NCBI GenBank assembly: GCA_045806985.1
Contig: JBJMIH010000031.1
Location: 10,038-74,037 of the forward strand
Length of the DNA stretch: 64,000 nucleotides
Direction: 5' to 3'
Source of the DNA: Mycobacteriales bacterium
GTDB lineage: Bacteria; Actinomycetota; Actinomycetes; Mycobacteriales; JBJMIH01
Every line of letters starts with the position of its first letter. Within the stretch, counting starts at the first letter, position 1. Positions 1 to 59,484 of the stretch are shown here, in pieces. The notes beneath the pieces were generated by a model that was not told the origin of the DNA, did no database searches, and worked only from the letters and a program-made list of their open reading frames with translations. Both the position numbers and the translations under genes were made by a program.

Positions 1-566
1 TACGCCTCATCCTCGCCGTCGGCGACCAGGTGCGCGACGCCGGAGCACCGGCTGTGCACCCGGCCGCCGCCCAGGCCCTCCATGTCGATCTGCTCGCCGG
101 TGACGCTGCGCACCACGTCCGGGCCGGTCACGAACATCCGGCCGCCGCCGGACATGATGACCAGGTCGGTGAGGGCGGGCCCGTACGCGGCGGCGCCGGC
201 CGCCGGCCCGAGCACCACCGACAGTTGCGGCACCTTGCCGGAGGCCCTCGTCATCGCGGCGAACATCCGCCCGACCGCGTCCATCGACTCGATGCCGTCG
301 GCGAGGGCCGCGCCGCCCGAGTGCCACATGCCGATGACCGGGCATCCCTCCCGGACGGCGGTCTCGATGGCGGCGACGATGGTCCGGCCGTCGGCCGCGC
401 CCAGCGCGCCGCCCATCCGGGTGGCGTCGGTGCAGTACCCGATCGCGGGCGCGCCGCCGACCCGGCCGCGGGCGGCCAGCGTGCCGCCGCCGTTCGGCCC
501 GAACGGTCGCATCGTGTCGCGGTCCATGAGCCTGCGGAGCCTGACCGCGGGGTCGCGTGGTTCCAT
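1..566 (-). CDS. Acyl-CoA carboxylase carboxyltransferase (beta) subunit, N-terminal ~188 codons; the 3' end runs off the window
   Basis: Missing from the ORF track because it is open at position 1. I hand-translated the minus strand codon by codon from the ATG at 566-564: [188 protein letters not shown]. The HSGGA, GPaaGaaaY, FVTGPdVV..VTGE and LGG pattern is typical of AccD/PccB-type carboxyltransferases. Confidence 0.85.
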   Translation of the reverse strand, partial: MEPRDPAVRLRRLMDRDTMRPFGPNGGGTLAARGRVGGAPAIGYCTDATRMGGALGAADGRTIVAAIETAVREGCPVIGMWHSGGAALADGIESMDAVGRMFAAMTRASGKVPQLSVVLGPAAGAAAYGPALTDLVIMSGGGRMFVTGPDVVRSVTGEQIDMEGLGGGRVHSRCSGVAHLVADGEDEA

Positions 567-687
567 TACGACCATTCTTCGGTGCCTTCCTTGGGTACCG
601 CCAAAGTGACGCTTGAGTAACTGGAATAGGGGTGGAACCGTGGGCTTAGGGGTAGGCCGTCGGGCGACCGGGAAATAGCGTTGAGGT
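567..687. promoter_or_regulatory. Divergent intergenic region between the carboxyltransferase gene and the small DUF5988-like ORF; candidate promoters/operator
   Basis: 121 bp with locally lower GC. It contains the direct repeat TAGGGGT(G/A)G at 627-635 and 647-655, spaced 20 bp apart. No promoter hexamers could be assigned confidently. Confidence 0.3.
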
Positions 688-900
688 ATGGACGAAAAGA
701 CGACGATAATTCTTTGTGGCGGCCCGGAGTGCCTGGACGAGTGCGAGCGGGTGCGCCATTGTTCCGAGCTTCCCGACAAGGTCGTCGTCGACCTCAACGG
801 CGGGCACGAGAGGTTCGAGCCCGCCGGTGAGTACCGCGACCTGGACGGGGAGAAGGCCGCCGTCTTCGAGTGGTGCTACCGCACCGCCGTCGCGGAGTGA
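688..900 (+). CDS. Small hypothetical protein (70 aa), resembles the actinobacterial DUF5988 family
   Basis: ATG preceded by GAGG. The composition is balanced, not the Arg/Pro/Gly-rich kind. The layout (IILCGGPECLD...VVVDLNGGHERFEP...VFEWCYRTAVAE) matches my recollection of DUF5988 proteins (..LEGGP..LP...K...GGYEHFE....W..RT.IAE). Family assignment is from memory, not from a search. Confidence 0.55.
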   Translation: MDEKTTIILCGGPECLDECERVRHCSELPDKVVVDLNGGHERFEPAGEYRDLDGEKAAVFEWCYRTAVAE

Positions 901-2705: not shown

Positions 2706-4262
2706 CTAATGCCGCCCTTGAGCCATCTCGGATTGGCGGCTCGGATCGGCCAGCTCCTTTTCCCGCTGGCTCGGCCCGCGCGGCACGAACAGCAGTGCGA
2801 GGACCATTCCGGCGACCGCGATGAGCCCGCAGGCGACCAGCATGACGTCCATTCCGTGAATGAACGCCGACCGCACCGAGTGCAGCAGCGCGGGCGAGTG
2901 CAGCTTGCGGGCGACGGCCGTGCCGCTGAGCACGGACCGGCGTGCCGCGTCGGCGGCGGGGGCGGGCAGGCCGGTCAGGTTCAGCCGACCCCGGTACCCG
3001 GAGTTGATCACCGAGCCGAGCAGCGCCACCCCGAACGTGCCGCCCACCGTCCGGATCGCGGTGATCAGCGCCGAGCCGACCCCGCTGCCCTCGGCGCTGA
3101 GGACCGCCAGCGCGGCGTTCATCGAGCCGGGCAGGGCCAGTCCGAGGCCCGCCCCGAGGAGCGCCACCCAGCCGGCGGTGAAGCCCTCGCCGCTGTGGAA
3201 GCCGGTCGTCGCGCCGGCGAACAGCCCGGCCGCCATCAGCGCGAATCCGGCCGCGATCGTCATCTTGGCGCCCACCCCGGCGGTGAGCCGGTCCGCGACC
3301 GCGCCACCGACCACCAGGCCGGCGATCATCGGCAGCAGCCGGATGCCGGCGCCCATCGCGTCGGTGCCGCGCACGCCCTGGAAGTACTGGGGCACCGCGA
3401 ACAGCAGCCCGAACATCGCGAACGACACCAGCGTCGCCAGCAGCGTCCCCCAGGAGAACGTGCGGGACCTGAACAGCCGCAGGTCGACCAGGGGCTGGCC
3501 GTCCGGCCGCCGGCCCAGCCGGCGCTCCCACTCCACGAACCCGGCCAGCACCACCGCGCCGAACAGCATCGGCAACACTGACCCCAGGTTGCTCCAGCCC
3601 TTCTGGCCAGCCTCGATCGCGCCGTACGTGAGCGCGGCCAGGGCGACGCTGGAGCCCAGGATGCCGGTCATGTCCAGGTCCGGCCGCCGCTCGCTGCGCG
3701 ACTCCGGCAGCAGTACCGCCACCGCCACCACCGCCAGCGCGGACACCGGCACGTTGATGAGGAACACCGAGCCCCACCAGTAGTGGGTGAGCAGCCAGCC
3801 GCCCAGCAGCGGGCCCAGCGGGTAGGCCACCACGGTCATGCCGACCAGCACGATCACCGCCCGGCCGCGCTCCTCCTCGCTGAACAGCACCGGCAGCACC
3901 GACAGCGACAGCGGCAGCACGAACGCCGCACCGAGCCCGAGCACCACCCTGGCGGCGATGAGCTGGCCCGGCGAGGTGGTGTACGCGCACCACAGCGACG
4001 AGGCCCCCAGCACCACCAGGGAGATCACCAGGAAGATCCGGCGGCCGTACCGGTCGCCGAGCAGGCCGCCCGGCAGCAGCATCGCGGCCATCGCGAGCGT
4101 GTAGGCGTCGACGATCCACTGGAGATCGGTGGTGGACGCGTGCAGGTCGGTGGACAGGGTCGGCAGGGCGAGGTTGAGCACGGTGGCGTCCAATCCCACC
4201 ACCAGCAGGGCGAGGGCGAGCGCGCCCACCGCCCACCACCGACGGTCACCTACCTTGGCCAT
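2706..4262 (-). CDS. MFS transporter, DHA2 (EmrB/QacA-like, 14-TMS type) drug:H+ antiporter; probable product exporter / self-resistance
   Basis: 518 aa. N-terminus WWAVGALALALLVVGLDATVLNLALPTLSTDLHASTTDLQWIVDAYTLAMAAMLLPGGLLGDRYGRR is the classic DHA2 signature. Hydrophobic segments run throughout. The start lies 24 nt after the PKS4 stop, with GAAGGG upstream. Confidence 0.9.
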   Translation of the reverse strand: MAKVGDRRWWAVGALALALLVVGLDATVLNLALPTLSTDLHASTTDLQWIVDAYTLAMAAMLLPGGLLGDRYGRRIFLVISLVVLGASSLWCAYTTSPGQLIAARVVLGLGAAFVLPLSLSVLPVLFSEEERGRAVIVLVGMTVVAYPLGPLLGGWLLTHYWWGSVFLINVPVSALAVVAVAVLLPESRSERRPDLDMTGILGSSVALAALTYGAIEAGQKGWSNLGSVLPMLFGAVVLAGFVEWERRLGRRPDGQPLVDLRLFRSRTFSWGTLLATLVSFAMFGLLFAVPQYFQGVRGTDAMGAGIRLLPMIAGLVVGGAVADRLTAGVGAKMTIAAGFALMAAGLFAGATTGFHSGEGFTAGWVALLGAGLGLALPGSMNAALAVLSAEGSGVGSALITAIRTVGGTFGVALLGSVINSGYRGRLNLTGLPAPAADAARRSVLSGTAVARKLHSPALLHSVRSAFIHGMDVMLVACGLIAVAGMVLALLFVPRGPSQREKELADPSRQSEMAQGRH

Positions 4263-4286: not shown

Positions 4287-8522
<4,236 letters not shown>

Positions 8523-8528
8523 GTGGCA

Positions 8529-34774
<26,246 letters not shown>

Positions 34775-34777
34775 TCG

Positions 34778-53732
<18,955 letters not shown>

Positions 53733-53743
<11 letters not shown>

Positions 53744-54818
53744 CGCTGAGCCCCTCCCGCACCCGGCCGCGCGCCTTCGCCAGCCACCAGGCCAGGTCGA
53801 GCACCGCCCGCCGCGGGCCGCGCACGCCCCGCATCCGCAGCACGGACTGGGCCGTGAACAGCTTCGACTCGGTCACGTGCCCAGGCGAGGCGTGCACGTC
53901 GTCGATCTCGGCGGTCCGCACGTTCGGCGCGTGCGCGGCGAGCCGGCGCGGGTCGGCCGGCGGGATGATCTCGTCCCGCCTGCTGGCCAGGTACGCCACC
54001 GGCACCGGCAGCGCGGCCAGCATGTCGTCGGTGAGCGCCCAGTCCGGCAGCAGGCCGGGCAGGCCCTCGGCCTTGCCGCCGGTGAGGTGCGCGAGCGTGT
54101 CGACGGTCACCTTCGGCAGCCGCTGCTGCCAGGCCGGGTCGGTGAAGAACGCGCTGACCGGCGCGCCGGCCGTCACCACCCCCCGGATGCGGCGGTCGGT
54201 GAGCGCGCAGCGCAGCGCCAGGTGCCCGCTGAAGCTGAGGGCGACCGCGTACGTCCGCGCCACGTCGGCCCGGTCGGCGACCGCGTCCAGCACCGCGGAC
54301 AGGTACCGCCAGCTGTCCGGGCCGTAGCTCGCCGGGTTCTCGCCGACGCCGGGCAGCTCGGCCACCACGCCGGCCATGCCGGTCCGGCCCAGGTCGGCCA
54401 GCAGCGGCGCCCACTGCTCCTTCACGCTGACGATGCCGCCGCAGACCAGCAGCAGCGGGCGGCGCTTCGATCCGGACAGGCCGGACGCCCAGCAGCGCAC
54501 GTCGCCGGCGTCCACCCGCTCGATGCCGCGCCGGCCCCGCCGCCAGGTGTCGAACGCGGCGACGCAGGCGTCCTGCGCCCGCTGCCGGGCCGGGCCGTCC
54601 ACGTACGGGAAGCGCGCCATCGCGTACCGCCGGCTGCCGCCCAGCGGGTCGCCGGCCGCCACCCGCCGGTCACCGGCCGCCGTCCACTGCACCACCCAGG
54701 AGGTCGGGCTGTCCTCGGCGTCATCGGTGATCCGGTCCAGCACCTCCCGGTGGTCCCTGATGTCCTGGGCGCGGGCGTGCACGGTCGCGAACCGCTTCAG
54801 CTCCTCGACGTCGTTCAT
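53733..54818 (-). CDS. Alpha/beta-fold hydrolase of the tetronate cassette (AbyA5/ChlD4/Agg5/QmnD4-position; candidate acetate-eliminating, exocyclic-methylene-forming enzyme)
   Basis: 361 aa. FrsA-like alpha/beta hydrolase look. The candidate nucleophile elbow is AVALSFSGH, a variant of GxSxGG. It sits immediately after the E2-like gene (ATGA overlap at 54815-54818), and its stop overlaps the PKS1 start by 11 nt. The functional call rests on gene context and family analogy. Confidence 0.75.
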
Positions 54819-55579
54819 GCCGGCTCTCCCTTGAAGTTCTCCAGCGCCTCCTTGATCTCGCCCAGCACGTCGGCGGCTTCCGCGCCGTCGATCACCCGGT
54901 GGTCGAAGGCCAGGCTGAGCCGCATCGCCGGTACCACGACCACCTCGCCGCGCCGCGCGACCGGACGGTCGGCGACCTGGCCCATGCCGAGCGTGATCGT
55001 GGTGCCGCCGACCGAGTGGAAGGCGTCGACCGGCCGGTGCCCCAGCGAGCTGACCGCGAACGTGCCGACCAGCTCGGGCCGGCGGCGCAGCGAGCGCATC
55101 CCGGCGCGGTACAGCAGCCGGCCCAGCGGCACGGGCAGCTTCTGCAGCATCCGGGGGCCGGCGAACTCCGGCATGTTGGCGGCGTCGCCGTCGCGGTAGT
55201 GGTCCACCTGGGCCTGGATGTCGGCCAGGCCGGCACTGTCCAGGTCCGGCAGGACGGCGGTGAGCACCACCCGGTGGCCGTTGACGGTCTTGTCCAGCGC
55301 GAGCTTGCCGCTGGCCGTCCCGTACCTGGCCACCCGCGGCCGGGACCAGCCGGTGATGGCCCCGTTCGCCTCCGGGTGCCCGACCAGCACGCGGGCGGCC
55401 GCGTACAGCACGTAGCTGACCGTCGAGTACCGCTCGCCGCGGGCGCGGGCCTCCTCCCGGTGCGCGGTCACCGCGCTCATGTCCACCTCGGTGTCCAGGA
55501 AGACCGGCGCGAACTCACGGGCCTGGCCGAGGAACTGGTAGGTGTGCCGCCGCTCCCTGGGCAGCTGGTTGATGGTCAT
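54815..55579 (-). CDS. 2-oxoacid dehydrogenase E2-type acyltransferase, catalytic domain only (AbyA4/ChlD3/Agg4/QmnD3-position)
   Basis: 254 aa. The C-terminal segment LSLAFDHRVIDGAEAADVLGEIKEALE contains the DHRxxDG catalytic motif of E2 acyltransferases. No lipoyl or E3-binding domain is present. ATGA overlap with the ACP stop at 55576-55579. Confidence 0.85.
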   Translation of the reverse strand: MTINQLPRERRHTYQFLGQAREFAPVFLDTEVDMSAVTAHREEARARGERYSTVSYVLYAAARVLVGHPEANGAITGWSRPRVARYGTASGKLALDKTVNGHRVVLTAVLPDLDSAGLADIQAQVDHYRDGDAANMPEFAGPRMLQKLPVPLGRLLYRAGMRSLRRRPELVGTFAVSSLGHRPVDAFHSVGGTTITLGMGQVADRPVARRGEVVVVPAMRLSLAFDHRVIDGAEAADVLGEIKEALENFKGEPA

Positions 55580-55803
55580 GTCCCCACCGCCACTGTGTAG
55601 ATCTGTTCGAGGCTCCTGGCATGCAGCAGGTCGGGCAGCGACAGCTGCCGCCCGGTGTCCCGCTCGAGGAGGGTGAGCAGCCAGAGCAGGTGCATCGAGT
55701 CCCAGCCGGGCAGCTCGTCCAGGTCGCGGCCGGCGTCGGCGTCGGATACCTCGATGCCGAGCTCGTCGCGCACCACGGTCAGCAGGTCGTCCATGCTGTT
55801 CAC
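55576..55803 (-). CDS. Discrete acyl carrier protein (glyceryl-ACP carrier; AbyA3/ChlD2-position)
   Basis: Only the last ~75 codons of track ORF 55576..57321 make sense: (VNS)MDDLLTVVRDELGIEVSDADAGRDLDELPGWDSMHLLWLLTLLERDTGRQLSLPDLLHARSLEQIYTVAVGT. The phosphopantetheine Ser sits in GWDSMH (codon 55696-55698). The start is either the GTG at 55803 (GTGA overlap with the FkbH-like stop) or the ATG at 55794. Confidence 0.8.
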   Translation of the reverse strand: MNSMDDLLTVVRDELGIEVSDADAGRDLDELPGWDSMHLLWLLTLLERDTGRQLSLPDLLHARSLEQIYTVAVGT

Positions 55804-57677
55804 GTCGGTTCCCGTTCGAGTTCGTCGGTGAGGCGCACGCAGTCCGGCGGCGCCACGATGTCGGTCAGGTCGTGGCGGAACAGCGCGGTGCCGCCGTCGT
55901 CGCCGACCTTGGTGAAGCCGTGCCGCGGGTAGAACTCGCGCATCGCGCGGTTCTTCGCGGTCGGCCGGTACGCCCCGTACACCGCCGCCGCGCCGGCGTC
56001 CCGCGCGTGCCGCAGCAGCGCCGCCAGGCAGGCCCGCTCGATGCCCCGGACGAACACCCGGCAGCTGAGCAGGAAGTTCTCCACGGTCATGCCGTCGCCG
56101 CCGCGCCGGGCGAAGATCGCGCCAACCATCCCGTTGTCGCCGAACCGGTCGCTGGCCCGGATCGTCAGCACCAGCGCGTCCGGGTCGTCCAGCAGGGCGC
56201 TGACGTCGGCGGGGGACAGCCGGCGGGTGGTCAGGTTGAACTGGTTGGTCCGTAGCGTGAGCTGGGACAGCCGGGGCACGTCCGGCTCGCCGGCCCTGGC
56301 CAGCCGGACCCGGATGTCCAGCTCGCGGCGGTACTCGTCGAGGGACTCGAAGTGCTGGAGGAAGTCGGTGCGGTCCAGCTCCTCGCGGTAGCGGGCGACC
56401 CTGGCGCGGTCCTCCTCGGTCAACTCCCGGGTGTCGAACCAGCCGTCGGCCAGCAGCCGGTCCACGTGCAGCGCCGGCTCGCCGTCGACCTCCACCACGG
56501 CCACGTCCGGCAGCTCGCGGCGGACCAGCCCGCGCTCGGCGGGGCTGTCGTCCACGAACACGACGCTGTCGGCGCCCAGGTTGAGGGCGGCGACCAGCTC
56601 GGCGAGGCTCTCGTGCTTCGGCCCCCAGCCGGCGGCGACCCGCACGAAATCCTCCTCGCGCAGCGTCATCTCCGGGTGCTCGCGCAGCGCCTGGCGCACC
56701 GGCTCGGGGTCGTTCTTGCTGACCGCCGCCAGCAACACCCCCTGCGCGCCGAGCTGCCTGGCGACCCGCTGGAAGGCGCGGAACGCCTCGCCGCGGTCGC
56801 CGCCGGCCACCTCCAGGCCCTCCACCCCGTCGTCGCCGAGCGTGCCGCCCCACACCGTCTCGTCCAGGTCGAGGGCCAGGCACTTGCGGGTACGGCCGGT
56901 GAGGTGGCGGGCCAGGTGGCCGACCTCGCGGGCGTAGCGGGCCAGCAGCTCCAGGGACAGGTGGCAGCCGGCGTAGGTGTCCAGCCGCGGCTCCACGGCC
57001 GGCACGCCACCCTCGGCCAGCAGCGGGTCCAGATCCACCACGACGGTCGCGGGGTGGTCTTCCGGCAGCCGCAGCAGGCGCGCGTTCGCCTCCCGCCAGG
57101 CGGCGCCGAGCGCGGCCCGGGACCGGTGGTCGACCAGCTGCCCGGTGACCGCGCGGGGGAGCGGCAGGGTGTTCAGCACCAGCGTGCCGGCGCCCGTGCC
57201 CTCGTACCGGCCGGCCAGCCGCTCCACCAGCTCGACCTTCGCGGCCAGCACCCGCCCGGCGTCCGCCGGCCGCCACGGCAGCGGCAGCTCGTCGGTCACC
57301 ATCCGGGGGTCCAGCACGCACAGCACCAGGTCGCAGTCGCCGGCGTAGACCAGGCTGTCCGGATCGGACAGTTCGCGGGCGTAGCCGCCGTACTCGCCCA
57401 CCTCGGCGCGCAGCAGCAGCCCGTGCCGGGCCAGCTCGGCGGCGAGCGGCGGCAGCAGGCCGGCGAGCGTGCCGTGGCCGGTGAGCGCGACCCGCACGGC
57501 GGGCACGTCCGGGTGCCGGCCGGCCACCTCGTCCGGGTCCAGCCGGGCGAGCAGCCGCCCGGCCTGGGCCAGCCCGTCGCCGTCCAGGTCCGCGAGCAGC
57601 TGCCTGACCCGCGGGTACCCGGCCGCCAACCGGCCGGTGCGGTACAGGTCGAGGAGCTCGGCGAGCGGCGTCGACAT
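55800..57677 (-). CDS. FkbH-like glyceryl-S-ACP synthase (HAD phosphatase + acyltransferase; AbyA2/ChlD1-position)
   Basis: 625 aa from the ATG at 57677 (MSTPLAELLDLYRTGRL...). The HAD motif is LALDLDETVWGG (DxDxT). VFVDDSPAE and FLLSCRVFVRGIE (Cys motif) are typical of FkbH-like domains. The ATG overlaps the FabH-like stop. The longer track ORF (to 58076) overlaps the FabH-like gene and is Arg/Gly-rich. Confidence 0.9.
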   Translation of the reverse strand: MSTPLAELLDLYRTGRLAAGYPRVRQLLADLDGDGLAQAGRLLARLDPDEVAGRHPDVPAVRVALTGHGTLAGLLPPLAAELARHGLLLRAEVGEYGGYARELSDPDSLVYAGDCDLVLCVLDPRMVTDELPLPWRPADAGRVLAAKVELVERLAGRYEGTGAGTLVLNTLPLPRAVTGQLVDHRSRAALGAAWREANARLLRLPEDHPATVVVDLDPLLAEGGVPAVEPRLDTYAGCHLSLELLARYAREVGHLARHLTGRTRKCLALDLDETVWGGTLGDDGVEGLEVAGGDRGEAFRAFQRVARQLGAQGVLLAAVSKNDPEPVRQALREHPEMTLREEDFVRVAAGWGPKHESLAELVAALNLGADSVVFVDDSPAERGLVRRELPDVAVVEVDGEPALHVDRLLADGWFDTRELTEEDRARVARYREELDRTDFLQHFESLDEYRRELDIRVRLARAGEPDVPRLSQLTLRTNQFNLTTRRLSPADVSALLDDPDALVLTIRASDRFGDNGMVGAIFARRGGDGMTVENFLLSCRVFVRGIERACLAALLRHARDAGAAAVYGAYRPTAKNRAMREFYPRHGFTKVGDDGGTALFRHDLTDIVAPPDCVRLTDELEREPT

Positions 57678-58771
57678 CAGGCCCCCGCCACCTTCTCCAG
57701 CTTCTCCAGGGCGAAGCCGGCCTCGATCCACTTGCTGGACTCGATCGCGACGCCGGCGGCCCTGTCGCCGGCGGCCATCCGCGGCAGCAGCTGCTCCAGC
57801 TGGAAGAAGGGCAGCGCGTTGCCGTTGTTTCCGGTGCGGGCCACGCAGCTCACCTCGGCCGCGTCCCGCACCGCCAACCGCTCCACGATCCGGCCGGTCA
57901 TCGCGCCGGACAGCTGCGGCGGCAGCAGGTGGTCCAGGTCGTCCGGCTTCCAGTCCAGCCGGTCCAGCAGCTCGGTGAGGGTGTCGGCGGCCAGCTCGGG
58001 CACGGATTCCTCGATGGCCTTGTAGTCCTCGCCGCCGGCCGGCCGGTCCGCGTCGCGGTCGGCCAGCCCGAACCACTCCACGGTCTGGCCCGGCGGCCGT
58101 CCCCTGCCGACCAGGCGCACGAACGCGTCCCGCAGCACCACGTCACCGGCGCCGGCGGCCCCGGTGGCGGCGGCGGTGGCGGTGGTGGCGGCGGTGGGCT
58201 CGGTGGTCAGCACCGCCGCGCCGGCGCCGTCGCCGAAGAGCACCACGTTGACCAGCTGCTCCGGCGCCAGCGTGTGCAGGTCGAGGGTCAGGTCCAGGTG
58301 CTTGGCGCACACGTCGCCGCCGAGCACCAGCGCGGTACGGCACCGGCCCGCGCGCAGCATCGTCGCGGCCACGTCCAGCGCCTGGACGGCGCCCGAACAC
58401 CCCGACTGGAGCTGGTAGCTGGGTATCCCGTCGATCCCGATCCGGTCGGCGACCACGTTCACGGTGGCCGGCATGAGCGCGTCCGGCGTCGCGGTCCCCA
58501 TCACGATCAGCCCGACCTCCGCGGGCTCGACCTCCGCCTGCTCCAGCGCGGCCCGCCCCGCGGCGGTCGCCAGGTCCGCCAGCCCGCACCGCACCTCGCC
58601 CGACTCCAGGTCGACGGCGAGGTGCCGGCTCGCGGTCCCGACGAACGAGTCGATCCACTGCTCCCAGACCGAGTTCATCCCGAACCGCCTGGCCAGCATC
58701 GCGTTGCTGACCGGAGGACCCGGCAACTCCGTACCGACCCCGACCACTCGCACTTCCGGAACGCTCATCAC
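57677..58771 (-). CDS. FabH-like ketoacyl-ACP synthase III homologue (tetronate ring-forming; AbyA1/ChlM/Tmn15/RkD-position)
   Basis: 364 aa. The GTG at 58771 is followed immediately by an ATG at 58768, with GGTGGGGA upstream. Motifs seen: VRVVGVGTELPG, active-site Cys in QLQSGCSGAVQAL, VLFGDGAGAAVL, and GNNGNA at the FabH Asn position. The FabH HQAN position reads PPQLS by hand alignment. Confidence 0.9.
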   Translation of the reverse strand: MMSVPEVRVVGVGTELPGPPVSNAMLARRFGMNSVWEQWIDSFVGTASRHLAVDLESGEVRCGLADLATAAGRAALEQAEVEPAEVGLIVMGTATPDALMPATVNVVADRIGIDGIPSYQLQSGCSGAVQALDVAATMLRAGRCRTALVLGGDVCAKHLDLTLDLHTLAPEQLVNVVLFGDGAGAAVLTTEPTAATTATAAATGAAGAGDVVLRDAFVRLVGRGRPPGQTVEWFGLADRDADRPAGGEDYKAIEESVPELAADTLTELLDRLDWKPDDLDHLLPPQLSGAMTGRIVERLAVRDAAEVSCVARTGNNGNALPFFQLEQLLPRMAAGDRAAGVAIESSKWIEAGFALEKLEKVAGA

Positions 58772-58839: not shown

Positions 58840-59484
58840 CTACCGGGGATCGGTGGTGAGGTAGGCGACGACCATGTCGCCGACCATGCGGCGTTGCTTT
58901 CGGCGGTATCCGGGGTCGGTCAGGTCACGGCCGAACAGGGCGCCGAAGGTGTGCTGGTTGGCGACGCGGAAGAAGCAGAACGCGCTGATCATCAGGTGCA
59001 GGTCGAGCGCGTCGGCCGGGGCGACGAAGTCGCCGCTGGCGCGGCCGGCCGCGAGGATCCTGGAGATCAGGTCGAGCACGGGCGCGCCCAGGTTGACCAG
59101 CAGGTCGGACTTGCGCAGGTGCTCGGCGCGGTGGATGTTCTCGATGCTGACCAGCCGGATGAAGTCGGGATGCGCGTCATGGTGGTCGAAGGTCAGCTCG
59201 GCCAGCGTGCGGATCGCCTCGACCGGGGCCAGGTGGGCCACGTCGATGCTGGCCTCGGCGGCGCGGATCTCGCTGTACGCCCGCTCCAGCACGGCGATGT
59301 AGAGCTGCTCCTTGCCGCCGAAGTAGTAGTAGATCATCCGCTTGGTGGTGCGGGTCAGCGCCGCGATCTCGTCCACCCGCGCGCCGTCGTACCCCTGCCG
59401 AGAGAACTCGCGCATGGCGACGTTCAGGATCTCTGCCCGGGTGCGTTCCGCGTCGCGCTGGCGCATCGCCGCCAGTCTAGACAC
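58840..59484 (-). CDS. TetR-family transcriptional regulator
   Basis: 214 aa. The N-terminal HTH region ERTRAEILNVAMREFSRQGYDGARVDEIAALTRTTKRMIYYYFGGKEQLY is the TetR signature. GTG start at 59484; an alternative ATG lies at 59466. It sits 68 bp upstream of the FabH-like gene and 1 nt downstream of the preceding stop. Confidence 0.9.
   Translation of the reverse strand: MSRLAAMRQRDAERTRAEILNVAMREFSRQGYDGARVDEIAALTRTTKRMIYYYFGGKEQLYIAVLERAYSEIRAAEASIDVAHLAPVEAIRTLAELTFDHHDAHPDFIRLVSIENIHRAEHLRKSDLLVNLGAPVLDLISRILAAGRASGDFVAPADALDLHLMISAFCFFRVANQHTFGALFGRDLTDPGYRRKQRRMVGDMVVAYLTTDPR

Follow-up and report, generated by a model that had tools for sequence, protein, structure and literature searches.

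Does a short row of genes at the head of a polyketide synthase (PKS) cluster in an uncultured actinobacterium direct the synthesis of a tetronate and, if so, how far beyond the bare ring is the product likely to be taken? The question is raised by positions 53733-58771 of a 64,000-nucleotide stretch of contig JBJMIH010000031.1 (Mycobacteriales bacterium, assembly GCA_045806985.1), here called the window, which derives from a metagenome-assembled genome (MAG) and whose exact protein matches, MFL6072389-MFL6072399, all belong to one NCBI contig. Abyssomicin, tetrocarcin and kijanimicin are examples of spirotetronate antibiotics of clinical interest. A first-pass annotation placed a five-gene tetronate cassette in this region, and the analysis presented here makes it highly probable that the region is a functional, co-translated "glycerate-utilization" operon that heads a ~58-kb type I PKS cluster and leads to an exo-methylene tetronate.

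Organization of the Cassette

All five open reading frames (ORFs) were found at the limits set by the annotation, to which the strand can now be added. Read along the minus strand from 58771 to 53733, they encode a FabH-like ketosynthase III (KSIII) of the AbyA1/RkD type (57677-58771, GTG start, 364 aa), an FkbH-like glyceryl-S-ACP synthase of the AbyA2 type (55800-57677, 625 aa), a discrete acyl carrier protein (ACP) of the AbyA3 type, a stand-alone E2-like acyltransferase of the AbyA4/Agg4/QmnD3 type (54815-55579, 254 aa) and a lyase of the AbyA5/Agg5/QmnD4 type with an alpha/beta hydrolase fold (53733-54818, 361 aa), hereafter the hydrolase. The ACP gene extends over 55576-55794 if it begins at ATG (72 aa, as in NCBI, where MFL6072398.1 is the exact record) or over 55576-55803 if it begins at GTG (75 aa, a form that has been recorded too). 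The G+C content is ~75% throughout the window and that of third codon positions (GC3) is 0.92-0.98 in each cassette gene, as would be expected of real genes; the many ORFs on the opposite strand of the region are shadow ORFs. With the ACP started at GTG 55803, the overlaps between successive genes are 1, 4, 4 and 4 bp, the start codon of the FkbH-like gene sharing one base with the KSIII stop codon and the ACP gene overlapping each of its neighbors by 4 bp, and the hydrolase gene in turn runs 11 bp into PKS1, the first PKS gene. By these overlaps the cassette is a single translationally coupled operon.

The AbyA1-A5 order claimed for the cassette is borne out by two characterized clusters, those of abyssomicin (abyA1-A5, Micromonospora/Verrucosispora maris) and neoabyssomicin (abmA1-A5, Streptomyces koyangensis), in which the same five genes stand in the same order. 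The abyA1-A5 products, of 341, 622, 78, 251 and 355 aa, are similar in size to those of the window, and there, too, the cassette is directly followed by the first PKS gene, abyB1 (PMC3625739).

Identity of the Five Proteins

The KSIII protein matches PF08545 and PF08541, falls far below the cut-offs of the ordinary FabH equivalog models and is 60% identical to PDB entry 5BY7 (E = 7e-126). Its active-site cysteine, Cys125, lies within SGCSGAV (motif at residue 123) and is conserved across cassette loci. A PPQLSG signature (residues 284-289), which we take to stand where FabH has its catalytic-His motif, is common to 67 of 71 cassette-linked homologues, in which the GNxGN signature of the protein also recurs. 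The predicted role of KSIII is to link glyceryl-ACP with the beta-ketoacyl chain bound to the PKS, a reaction that would form the tetronate and release the chain. Compared with 5BY7 it has an extra Thr/Ala-rich insertion of 14 residues, TTEPTAATTATAAATGAAGAGD, in the region 190-212.

The FkbH-like protein scores about two-fold above the cut-off of TIGR01686 (300.9 against 146.65 bits, E = 1e-89) and is also matched by the HAD-IIIC model. Its DLDETVWGG motif at residue 270 provides the DxDxT aspartates of the HAD fold (D270 and D272), and SCRV at residue 538, unchanged in 48/48 aligned homologues, provides Cys539; the three residues are conserved across cassette loci. The ACP exceeds the cut-off of PF00550 (26 against 20.8 bits) and carries GWDSMH at residue 30, with Ser33 as the phosphopantetheine serine and a WDS core conserved in its homologues.

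The E2-like acyltransferase matches PF00198 (E = 9e-23) and carries DHRVIDGA at residue 226, including His227, so that, with this last one, all five motifs quoted in the annotation have been located at definite residues; DHRxxDG is present in 74/74 aligned homologues. Pfam and NCBIfam models detect no lipoyl or subunit-binding domain in the protein, only the catalytic domain. Its score against the sucB equivalog is 59.9 bits, where the cut-off is 378, and true E2 structures in the PDB match it only over residues 195-248, that is, the last ~55 residues. A search of 5.8 billion protein clusters yielded 937 relatives (E<=1e-10), and the best 120 among them are stand-alone proteins of ~250-355 aa with 60-70% identity. 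The closest non-self match among the matches listed reaches 69-70%, and a "putative acyltransferase" of Streptomyces versipellis, the versipelostatin producer, 63%. The predicted role of the protein is O-acetylation of the 5-hydroxymethyl group.

The hydrolase matches PF06500 and PF00561 and aligns with the AbyA5 crystal structures 4YWF and 5NO5 over 344 aa at 53% identity (E = 1e-105, 357 bits), whereas FrsA structures give 39.7 bits (E = 3.5e-9) and the NCBIfam FrsA equivalog 47.8 bits against a cut-off of 477. Ser197 (SFSGH) is conserved in 71-74 of 80 homologues and His309 (DDVH) in 80/80, and on this conservation we take the two residues to be a catalytic dyad of the AbyA5 type. The enzyme is predicted to eliminate acetate and so to leave an exocyclic methylene. 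With E-values such as those for AbyA5, 5BY7 and the FkbH model, a chance match is excluded.

The context in which such genes occur elsewhere tells the same story. Hydrolase relatives were sought in one genome for each of 185,579 species, where the best is only 59% identical, and the best 80 of the 207 loci found were kept for context counts. The full KS-FkbH-ACP-E2-hydrolase order is present in 42 of the 80 and KS-ACP-E2-hydrolase in 22, and in 73 an E2-like gene immediately precedes the hydrolase gene. By identity, model score and locus context all five proteins side with tetronate-cassette relatives, as the annotation had proposed, and neither the E2-like protein nor the hydrolase groups with the E2 and FrsA proteins of primary metabolism, the outcome it had named as refuting. 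The reference set for these relationships comprised AbyA5, 5BY7, the S. versipellis protein and the 80 genome loci; the Chl, Agg and Qmn proteins were likened by published gene set and function.

The closest relatives of the E2-like protein (67-69% identity) occur in two rearranged cassettes. In one (locus L082, ENA ERZ27254220) the order is AOC-KS-FkbH-E2-ACP and an FrsA-like gene lies elsewhere, beside a gene for a FAD monooxygenase; in the other (L084, NCBI GCA_039648995.1, another Mycobacteriales MAG) it is KS-FkbH-E2-hydrolase, and the PKS is encoded by the other strand. The cassette family thus has no fixed gene order.

Predicted Route to the Exo-Methylene Tetronate

Homology to characterized enzymes, from which every step of the route is derived, suggests the following sequence of events. 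The FkbH-like protein would use its HAD aspartates D270/D272 and Cys539 to load a glyceryl unit from 1,3-bisphosphoglycerate onto Ser33 of the ACP, and KSIII (Cys125) would condense glyceryl-ACP and the beta-ketoacyl chain carried by the last PKS module, the C-C and C-O bonds formed giving a 3-acyl-5-hydroxymethyl tetronate. The E2-like protein (His227 of DHRVIDG) would then acetylate the 5-hydroxymethyl group, and the AbyA5-type lyase (Ser197/His309) would eliminate acetate to give the 5-exo-methylene tetronate. After these steps, a terminal E,E-diene on the polyketide chain may add to the exo-methylene in a [4+2] reaction, carried out by at least one of three AbyU/Cyc15-family proteins, to give a spirotetronate other than abyssomicin.

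The chemistry proposed for the E2-like protein and the hydrolase has been demonstrated for their functional counterparts in other clusters. Agg4 of the agglomerin pathway acetylates the 5-hydroxymethyl group and Agg5 eliminates acetate, and QmnD3 and QmnD4 of the quartromicin pathway act likewise in vitro (PMC4979870); an abmA4 knockout accumulates the hydroxy-tetronate and an abmA5 knockout the acetyl-tetronate (PMC5819245), and AbyA5 has been characterized as a catalyst of stereospecific acetate elimination (PMC10107801). Together with the AbyA5 match, the known function of these homologues supports the annotation in assigning the exocyclic methylene to an acylation/elimination pair. Its suggestion that the product goes beyond a simple 5-hydroxymethyl tetronate stands as far as the methylene is concerned, but agglomerin, tetronomycin and tetromadurin retain theirs (PMC7489565), and the pair therefore predicts an exo-methylene but does not by itself imply a spirotetronate. 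For the latter the argument comes from features outside the cassette, namely three AbyU-family genes and a predicted terminal diene.

The Assembly Line and Its Predicted Chain

The chain that the cassette would release is built by four PKS proteins encoded on the minus strand, whose domain order was read from a motif map and whose AT specificities follow from HAFH (malonyl) and YASH (methylmalonyl) signatures. PKS1 (34778-53743, 6321 aa) comprises a KSQ-AT(malonyl)-ACP loading module, modules 1 and 2 (each KS-AT(methylmalonyl)-DH-KR-ACP) and module 3 (KS-AT(methylmalonyl)-DH-ER-KR-ACP). PKS2 (19664-34774, exact protein MFL6072394.1) contributes module 4 (KS-AT(methylmalonyl)-DH-ACP), module 5 (KS-AT(methylmalonyl)-DH-KR-ACP) and module 6 (KS-AT(malonyl)-DH-ER-KR-ACP); PKS3 (8529-19667) contributes module 7 (KS-AT(methylmalonyl)-DH-ER-KR-ACP) and module 8 (KS-AT(malonyl)-DH-KR-ACP); and PKS4 (4287-8522) consists of the terminal module 9, in which KS and AT(malonyl) are followed by a dimerization element, a degenerate KR and an ACP. 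The line thus has a loading module and nine extension modules, six of them using methylmalonyl, with docking-domain-like termini at each PKS junction.

Three details of this line bear on the product. After the AT of PKS4, Pfam finds only PKS_DE and PP-binding, with no detectable KR and no thioesterase, and a keto-retaining module 9 of this kind leaves the beta-ketoacyl-ACP required for KSIII-mediated tetronate release. In module 4 (~30880-32140) Pfam finds a DH and an ACP and no KR, for which reason a ketone should be retained at this position. Because an LDD motif is found in the KR of module 1 and again in that of module 2, an E,E geometry is expected for the terminal diene, matching substrates of the abyssomicin type. 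Read collinearly, the chain should be CH3-CH=C(Me)-CH=C(Me)-CH2-CH(Me)-CO-CH(Me)-CH=C(Me)-(CH2)3-CH(Me)-CH=CH-CO-CH2-CO-S-ACP. The terminal diene, predicted from modules 1 and 2 by collinearity only, is doubly methylated, and the spiro ring would have 17 members. No described tetronate that could be identified appears to match such an assembly line (loading plus nine modules, six methyl branches).

Two observations may be added on individual parts of the line. The DH of module 4 looks intact (HxxxGxxxxP and DAALQ), and if a KR were present as well, the resulting C10-C13 diene would lie at the right distance from the C4=C5 enone for a [4+2] reaction to form a decalin. PKS3 and PKS4 lie in the same frame and are separated by a single TGA (8522-8531), and the NCBI numbering, with MFL6072392 for the transporter of the major facilitator superfamily (MFS) and MFL6072394 for PKS2, leaves one accession for both. 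Docking-like termini on either side of the TGA suggest two genuine subunits and not a sequencing error or read-through.

Three AbyU/Cyc15-Family Proteins

At the far end of the cluster, again on the minus strand, three genes encode AOC-like proteins: AOC1 (2109-2642, 174-177 aa, AbyU/PyrI4/PloI4 family), with a Sec-like N-terminus; AOC2 (1532-2095, 187 aa), with a PRRLAL twin-arginine-like N-terminus; and AOC3 (920-1510, 196 aa), with a SPRRLAV twin-arginine-like N-terminus, which is the candidate spirotetronate [4+2] cyclase. All match PF18678 (E = 9e-12, 8e-13 and 7e-19, respectively), the beta-barrel family to which Cyc15 (8OF7), AbyU (5DYV) and AbmU (6LE0), each encoded in a tetronate cluster, also belong. 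AOC2 and AOC3 are 57% identical to each other, and their best structural relative is Cyc15, followed by AbyU, AbmU and PyrI4: AOC2 matches Cyc15 with E = 2e-20 and AbmU with E = 2e-10, and AOC3 matches Cyc15 with E = 8e-28 and AbyU with E = 3e-12. AOC1 is divergent (26% identity to AOC3) and finds its best PDB match in PloI4 (E = 8e-6). Cyc15 has been shown to cyclize the abyssomicin substrate to a spirotetronate in vitro, whereas Tsn15 of the tetronasin pathway, which has the same fold, is not a spirotetronate cyclase (PMC10946715); the match of AOC3 to Tsn15 is marginal (E = 0.85).

Cyc15 and AbyU, of ~140-150 aa, match the barrel of AOC3 only (residue 64 or 85 onward), and what the window proteins have beyond them is an N-terminal extension and a pair of cysteines. 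The ~45-57 N-terminal residues of all three resemble signal peptides of the Tat or Sec kind, with a hydrophobic core, AxA-like sites and, in two of them, a PRRLA-type twin-arginine motif; good ribosome-binding sites precede them and their GC3 is 0.93-0.96. One cysteine stands at the start of the barrel and the other ~1-5 residues from the C-terminus; in AOC3 the two are Cys58 and Cys194. AbmU has no cysteine at the N-side position of AOC2 in the alignment. At the C-side, the Cyc15 and AbmU alignments end before the position is reached, and the Cyc15 alignments also begin after the N-side cysteine, so that they say nothing on the cysteines of Cyc15. A lipoprotein nature of the AOC proteins, considered on account of a cysteine after the signal region, was rejected, there being no lipobox and the cysteine lying 45-58 residues in.

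An exhaustive HMMER search of 1.84 billion representatives with mature AOC3 retrieved only 108 relatives, 107 of which were tallied for the two features. The Cys pair is present in 59 and absent from 7 of those with a signal-like N-terminus, and present in 10 and absent from 31 of those without one (Fisher p = 7e-12, with kinship of the sequences ignored). In Actinocrinis puniceicyclus (L030) and Micromonospora sp. CPCC 206061 (L053), signal-bearing relatives are neighbors of tetronate cassettes, whereas in many Streptomyces cassettes a signal-less copy of 134 aa lies directly upstream of KSIII. Within 10 kb of the hydrolase gene, each of the 80 hydrolase loci has at most one AOC copy. With full-length AOC3 as query, a word-indexed homologue search gave 8000 candidates and 2 matches, the Ala-rich N-terminus causing noise, and with mature AOC3 it gave 15 candidates and the same 2 matches, and thus no close relatives.

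Taken together, the signal-like N-termini and paired cysteines suggest an exported, disulfide-stapled subfamily of Diels-Alderase-like proteins, possibly concerned with extracytoplasmic cyclization, for which a binding or resistance role is the alternative. In the literature searched, no paper discussing export of spirotetronate cyclases was found. It can be imagined, although we regard it as rather doubtful, that the three proteins are exported disulfide-stapled enzymes, that the linear exo-methylene tetronate is pumped out and that one or more [4+2] or other pericyclic cyclizations outside the cytoplasm yield an undescribed C29 spirotetronate, with a 17-membered macrocycle or further cyclized. 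If this were true, the triple set of exported AbyU-like cyclases would raise the question of where in the cell enzymatic Diels-Alder chemistry occurs.

Many Streptomyces loci (L010, L012, L014, L017, L022 and ~20 others) have an AOC-like gene of 134-145 aa, lacking a signal, directly upstream of KS-FkbH-ACP-E2-hydrolase, and in these loci an MFS gene lies ~1.4 kb downstream.

How Far Is the Tetronate Taken?

Several points weigh against a cassette-derived exo-methylene tetronate that is closed to a spirotetronate in the manner of abyssomicin. A methyl group sits on the internal diene carbon due to be bonded to the spiro center, so that two adjacent quaternary centers would arise, and the ring formed would be 17-membered, unlike that of abyssomicin. 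The three cyclase candidates look exported, which does not agree well with a simple pathway in the cytoplasm. Identity of the cassette proteins to any relative found is only 51-70%, and details of substrate cannot be transferred with certainty. The source is a MAG, and expression and product are predictions from the genes. Two of the comparisons also lean on less than a documented identity: 5BY7 is probably AbyA1, judging by its length and similarity, the PDB label reading only "3-oxoacyl-ACP synthase III", and the Ser-His catalytic dyad of AbyA5 is quoted as it was reportedly described by Lees et al. in 2019.

The alternative that survives best accepts a working cassette but supposes that the product keeps its exo-methylene, as in agglomerin, tetronomycin and tetromadurin, the AOC proteins acting on some other part of the chain in a pericyclic or other cyclization, like Tsn15 in tetronasin, or binding the compound outside the cell. 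Non-spiro tetronates made with an Agg4/Agg5-type pair do exist (PMC7489565; PMC4979870), and the same two quaternary carbons and the same apparent export that trouble the spirotetronate favor this alternative, as does the precedent of Tsn15, an AOC fold with no spirotetronate cyclase role (PMC10946715). We nevertheless consider it unlikely, though worth keeping in mind, because the PKS starts as spirotetronate PKSs do, with KSQ loading and two DH-KR modules giving a terminal conjugated diene, because AOC2 and AOC3 are closest to the spirotetronate makers Cyc15, AbyU and AbmU and at most marginally related to Tsn15, and because the epoxidase and epoxide hydrolase genes of polyether tetronates are absent from the window.

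Much less probable is that the cassette makes nothing, the locus being an assembly chimera or a decayed or silent cluster. The origin from a MAG, the one NCBI accession left for PKS3 and PKS4 and the DH without a KR in module 4 might be read in this sense, but ~57 kb of coding sequence runs on with no frameshifts or internal stops and with a uniform GC3 of 0.92-0.98, docking-domain-like termini match at each PKS junction, and there are no near-identical or collapsed repeats that could mislead an assembler, the only internal repeat of the window being one of 1.3 kb at 86% identity. Moreover, a separate JGI metagenome contig (L081) independently repeats the AOC2-AOC3-DUF5988-carboxyltransferase arrangement at 85-91% protein identity.

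FkbH homologues also begin the methoxymalonyl-ACP pathway (PMC7489565), which raises the possibility that the FkbH-like protein and the ACP supply a methoxymalonyl- or hydroxymalonyl-ACP extender and not a tetronate precursor. This is very improbable in a window with no genes for an FkbG-type O-methyltransferase or FkbI/FkbK-type dehydrogenases, where every AT has a malonyl or methylmalonyl signature, translational coupling ties the FkbH gene to both a tetronate-type KSIII and the E2/hydrolase pair, and the PKS, being devoid of a thioesterase, requires KSIII for release. That the E2-like protein and the hydrolase are a 2-oxoacid dehydrogenase E2 and an FrsA esterase of primary metabolism lying beside a PKS by chance, as their automatic NCBI/JGI names ("2-oxo acid dehydrogenase subunit E2", "esterase FrsA") and Pfam families PF00198 and PF06500 would have it, is practically out of the question and refuted by the sucB, FrsA and AbyA5 scores, the restricted E2 match without a lipoyl domain, the overlap of both genes with each other and their neighbors, and the 73 loci that share the pair.

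Comparison With Known Tetronate Clusters

The preferred reading, an exo-methylene tetronate that goes on to a spirotetronate, can be set against characterized systems. The abyssomicin and neoabyssomicin clusters resemble the window not only in their cassettes but in having KSQ loading, DH-KR modules, a keto-retaining end lacking a thioesterase, an AbyU-family cyclase, a TetR regulator and an MFS-type exporter. The window differs from them in its ten modules instead of seven, counting the loading module, in its mostly methylmalonyl extenders and the ER of module 3, and in its three cyclase genes with signal-like N-termini where they have one. The abyssomicin cluster also encodes the P450s AbyV and AbyX and the luciferase-like monooxygenase AbyE beside its seven-module PKS (PMC3625739), whereas the 64-kb window has no P450, luciferase-like monooxygenase or ABC transporter genes. 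The number of modules, the pattern of extenders and the lack of tailoring genes rule out abyssomicin as the product.

The Agg4/Agg5 and QmnD3/QmnD4 pairs are the closest in demonstrated chemistry (PMC4979870; PMC5819245), although agglomerin, unlike the window, involves no modular PKS and keeps the methylene. Mad7/8/16/17/18 of tetromadurin and the tetronomycin cassette cover all five functions, acetylation and elimination among them (PMC7489565), but in those clusters the genes are scattered, and the products are polyethers that keep the exo-methylene. A homologous five-gene set occurs in the chlorothricin cluster (chlM/chlD1-D4) and in other class II spirotetronate clusters such as those of kijanimicin, tetrocarcin and versipelostatin. 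Class II clusters have at least 12 modules, a FAD-dependent decalin-forming cyclase and glycosylation genes, whereas no glycosyltransferase or FAD-dependent decalin cyclase gene is present in the window, and, module 4 being without a KR, the predicted chain lacks a second diene of PKS origin from which a decalin could be made. A class II product was considered, as the spacing between C4=C5, the dienophile, and the C10=C11 alkene is right, but the diene would need C12=C13 and with it the KR that module 4 lacks; the decalin reading, which also implies an implausible 9-membered ring, is left as speculation. The cluster is a compact tetronate cluster, probably of the class I spirotetronate kind.

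The cassette itself is an intact copy of a well-known tetronate set and an ordinary member of a well-characterized system, of a kind that standard cluster-mining tools would flag; its biosynthetic logic is that of the textbook and adds no new mechanism. The novelty lies in the host cluster, with its uncultured lineage, unmatched module pattern and three apparently exported cyclases. What the cassette does is to draw attention to a polyketide-tetronate cluster that is compact and apparently complete. This cluster belongs to an uncultured actinobacterium of high GC, and its proteins are at most ~60-70% identical to anything in the species genomes (hydrolase; 185,579) and protein clusters (E2-like; 5.8 billion) searched. 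Its small size and the absence of glycosylation and P450 genes make it a tractable target for synthesis and heterologous expression.

Neighboring Genes and Cluster Edges

Between PKS4 and the AOC genes lies a gene for an MFS transporter, a probable exporter (2706-4262, minus strand, 518 aa, PF07690 E = 1e-53, MFL6072392.1). Past AOC3 follow a small gene of the DUF5988 family (688-900, plus strand, 70 aa, PF19450 E = 8e-21) and a gene for the carboxyltransferase subunit of an acyl-CoA carboxylase (3-575, minus strand, PF01039 E = 9e-41), which runs off the window and may help to supply methylmalonyl-CoA for the six methylmalonyl modules. At the other end, a TetR-family regulator gene (58840-59484, minus strand, PF00440 and PF17938) directly upstream of the cassette is the probable edge of the cluster, and the citrate-synthase-like, CoA-transferase III, IclR and aldehyde dehydrogenase genes found beyond it were taken as lying outside.

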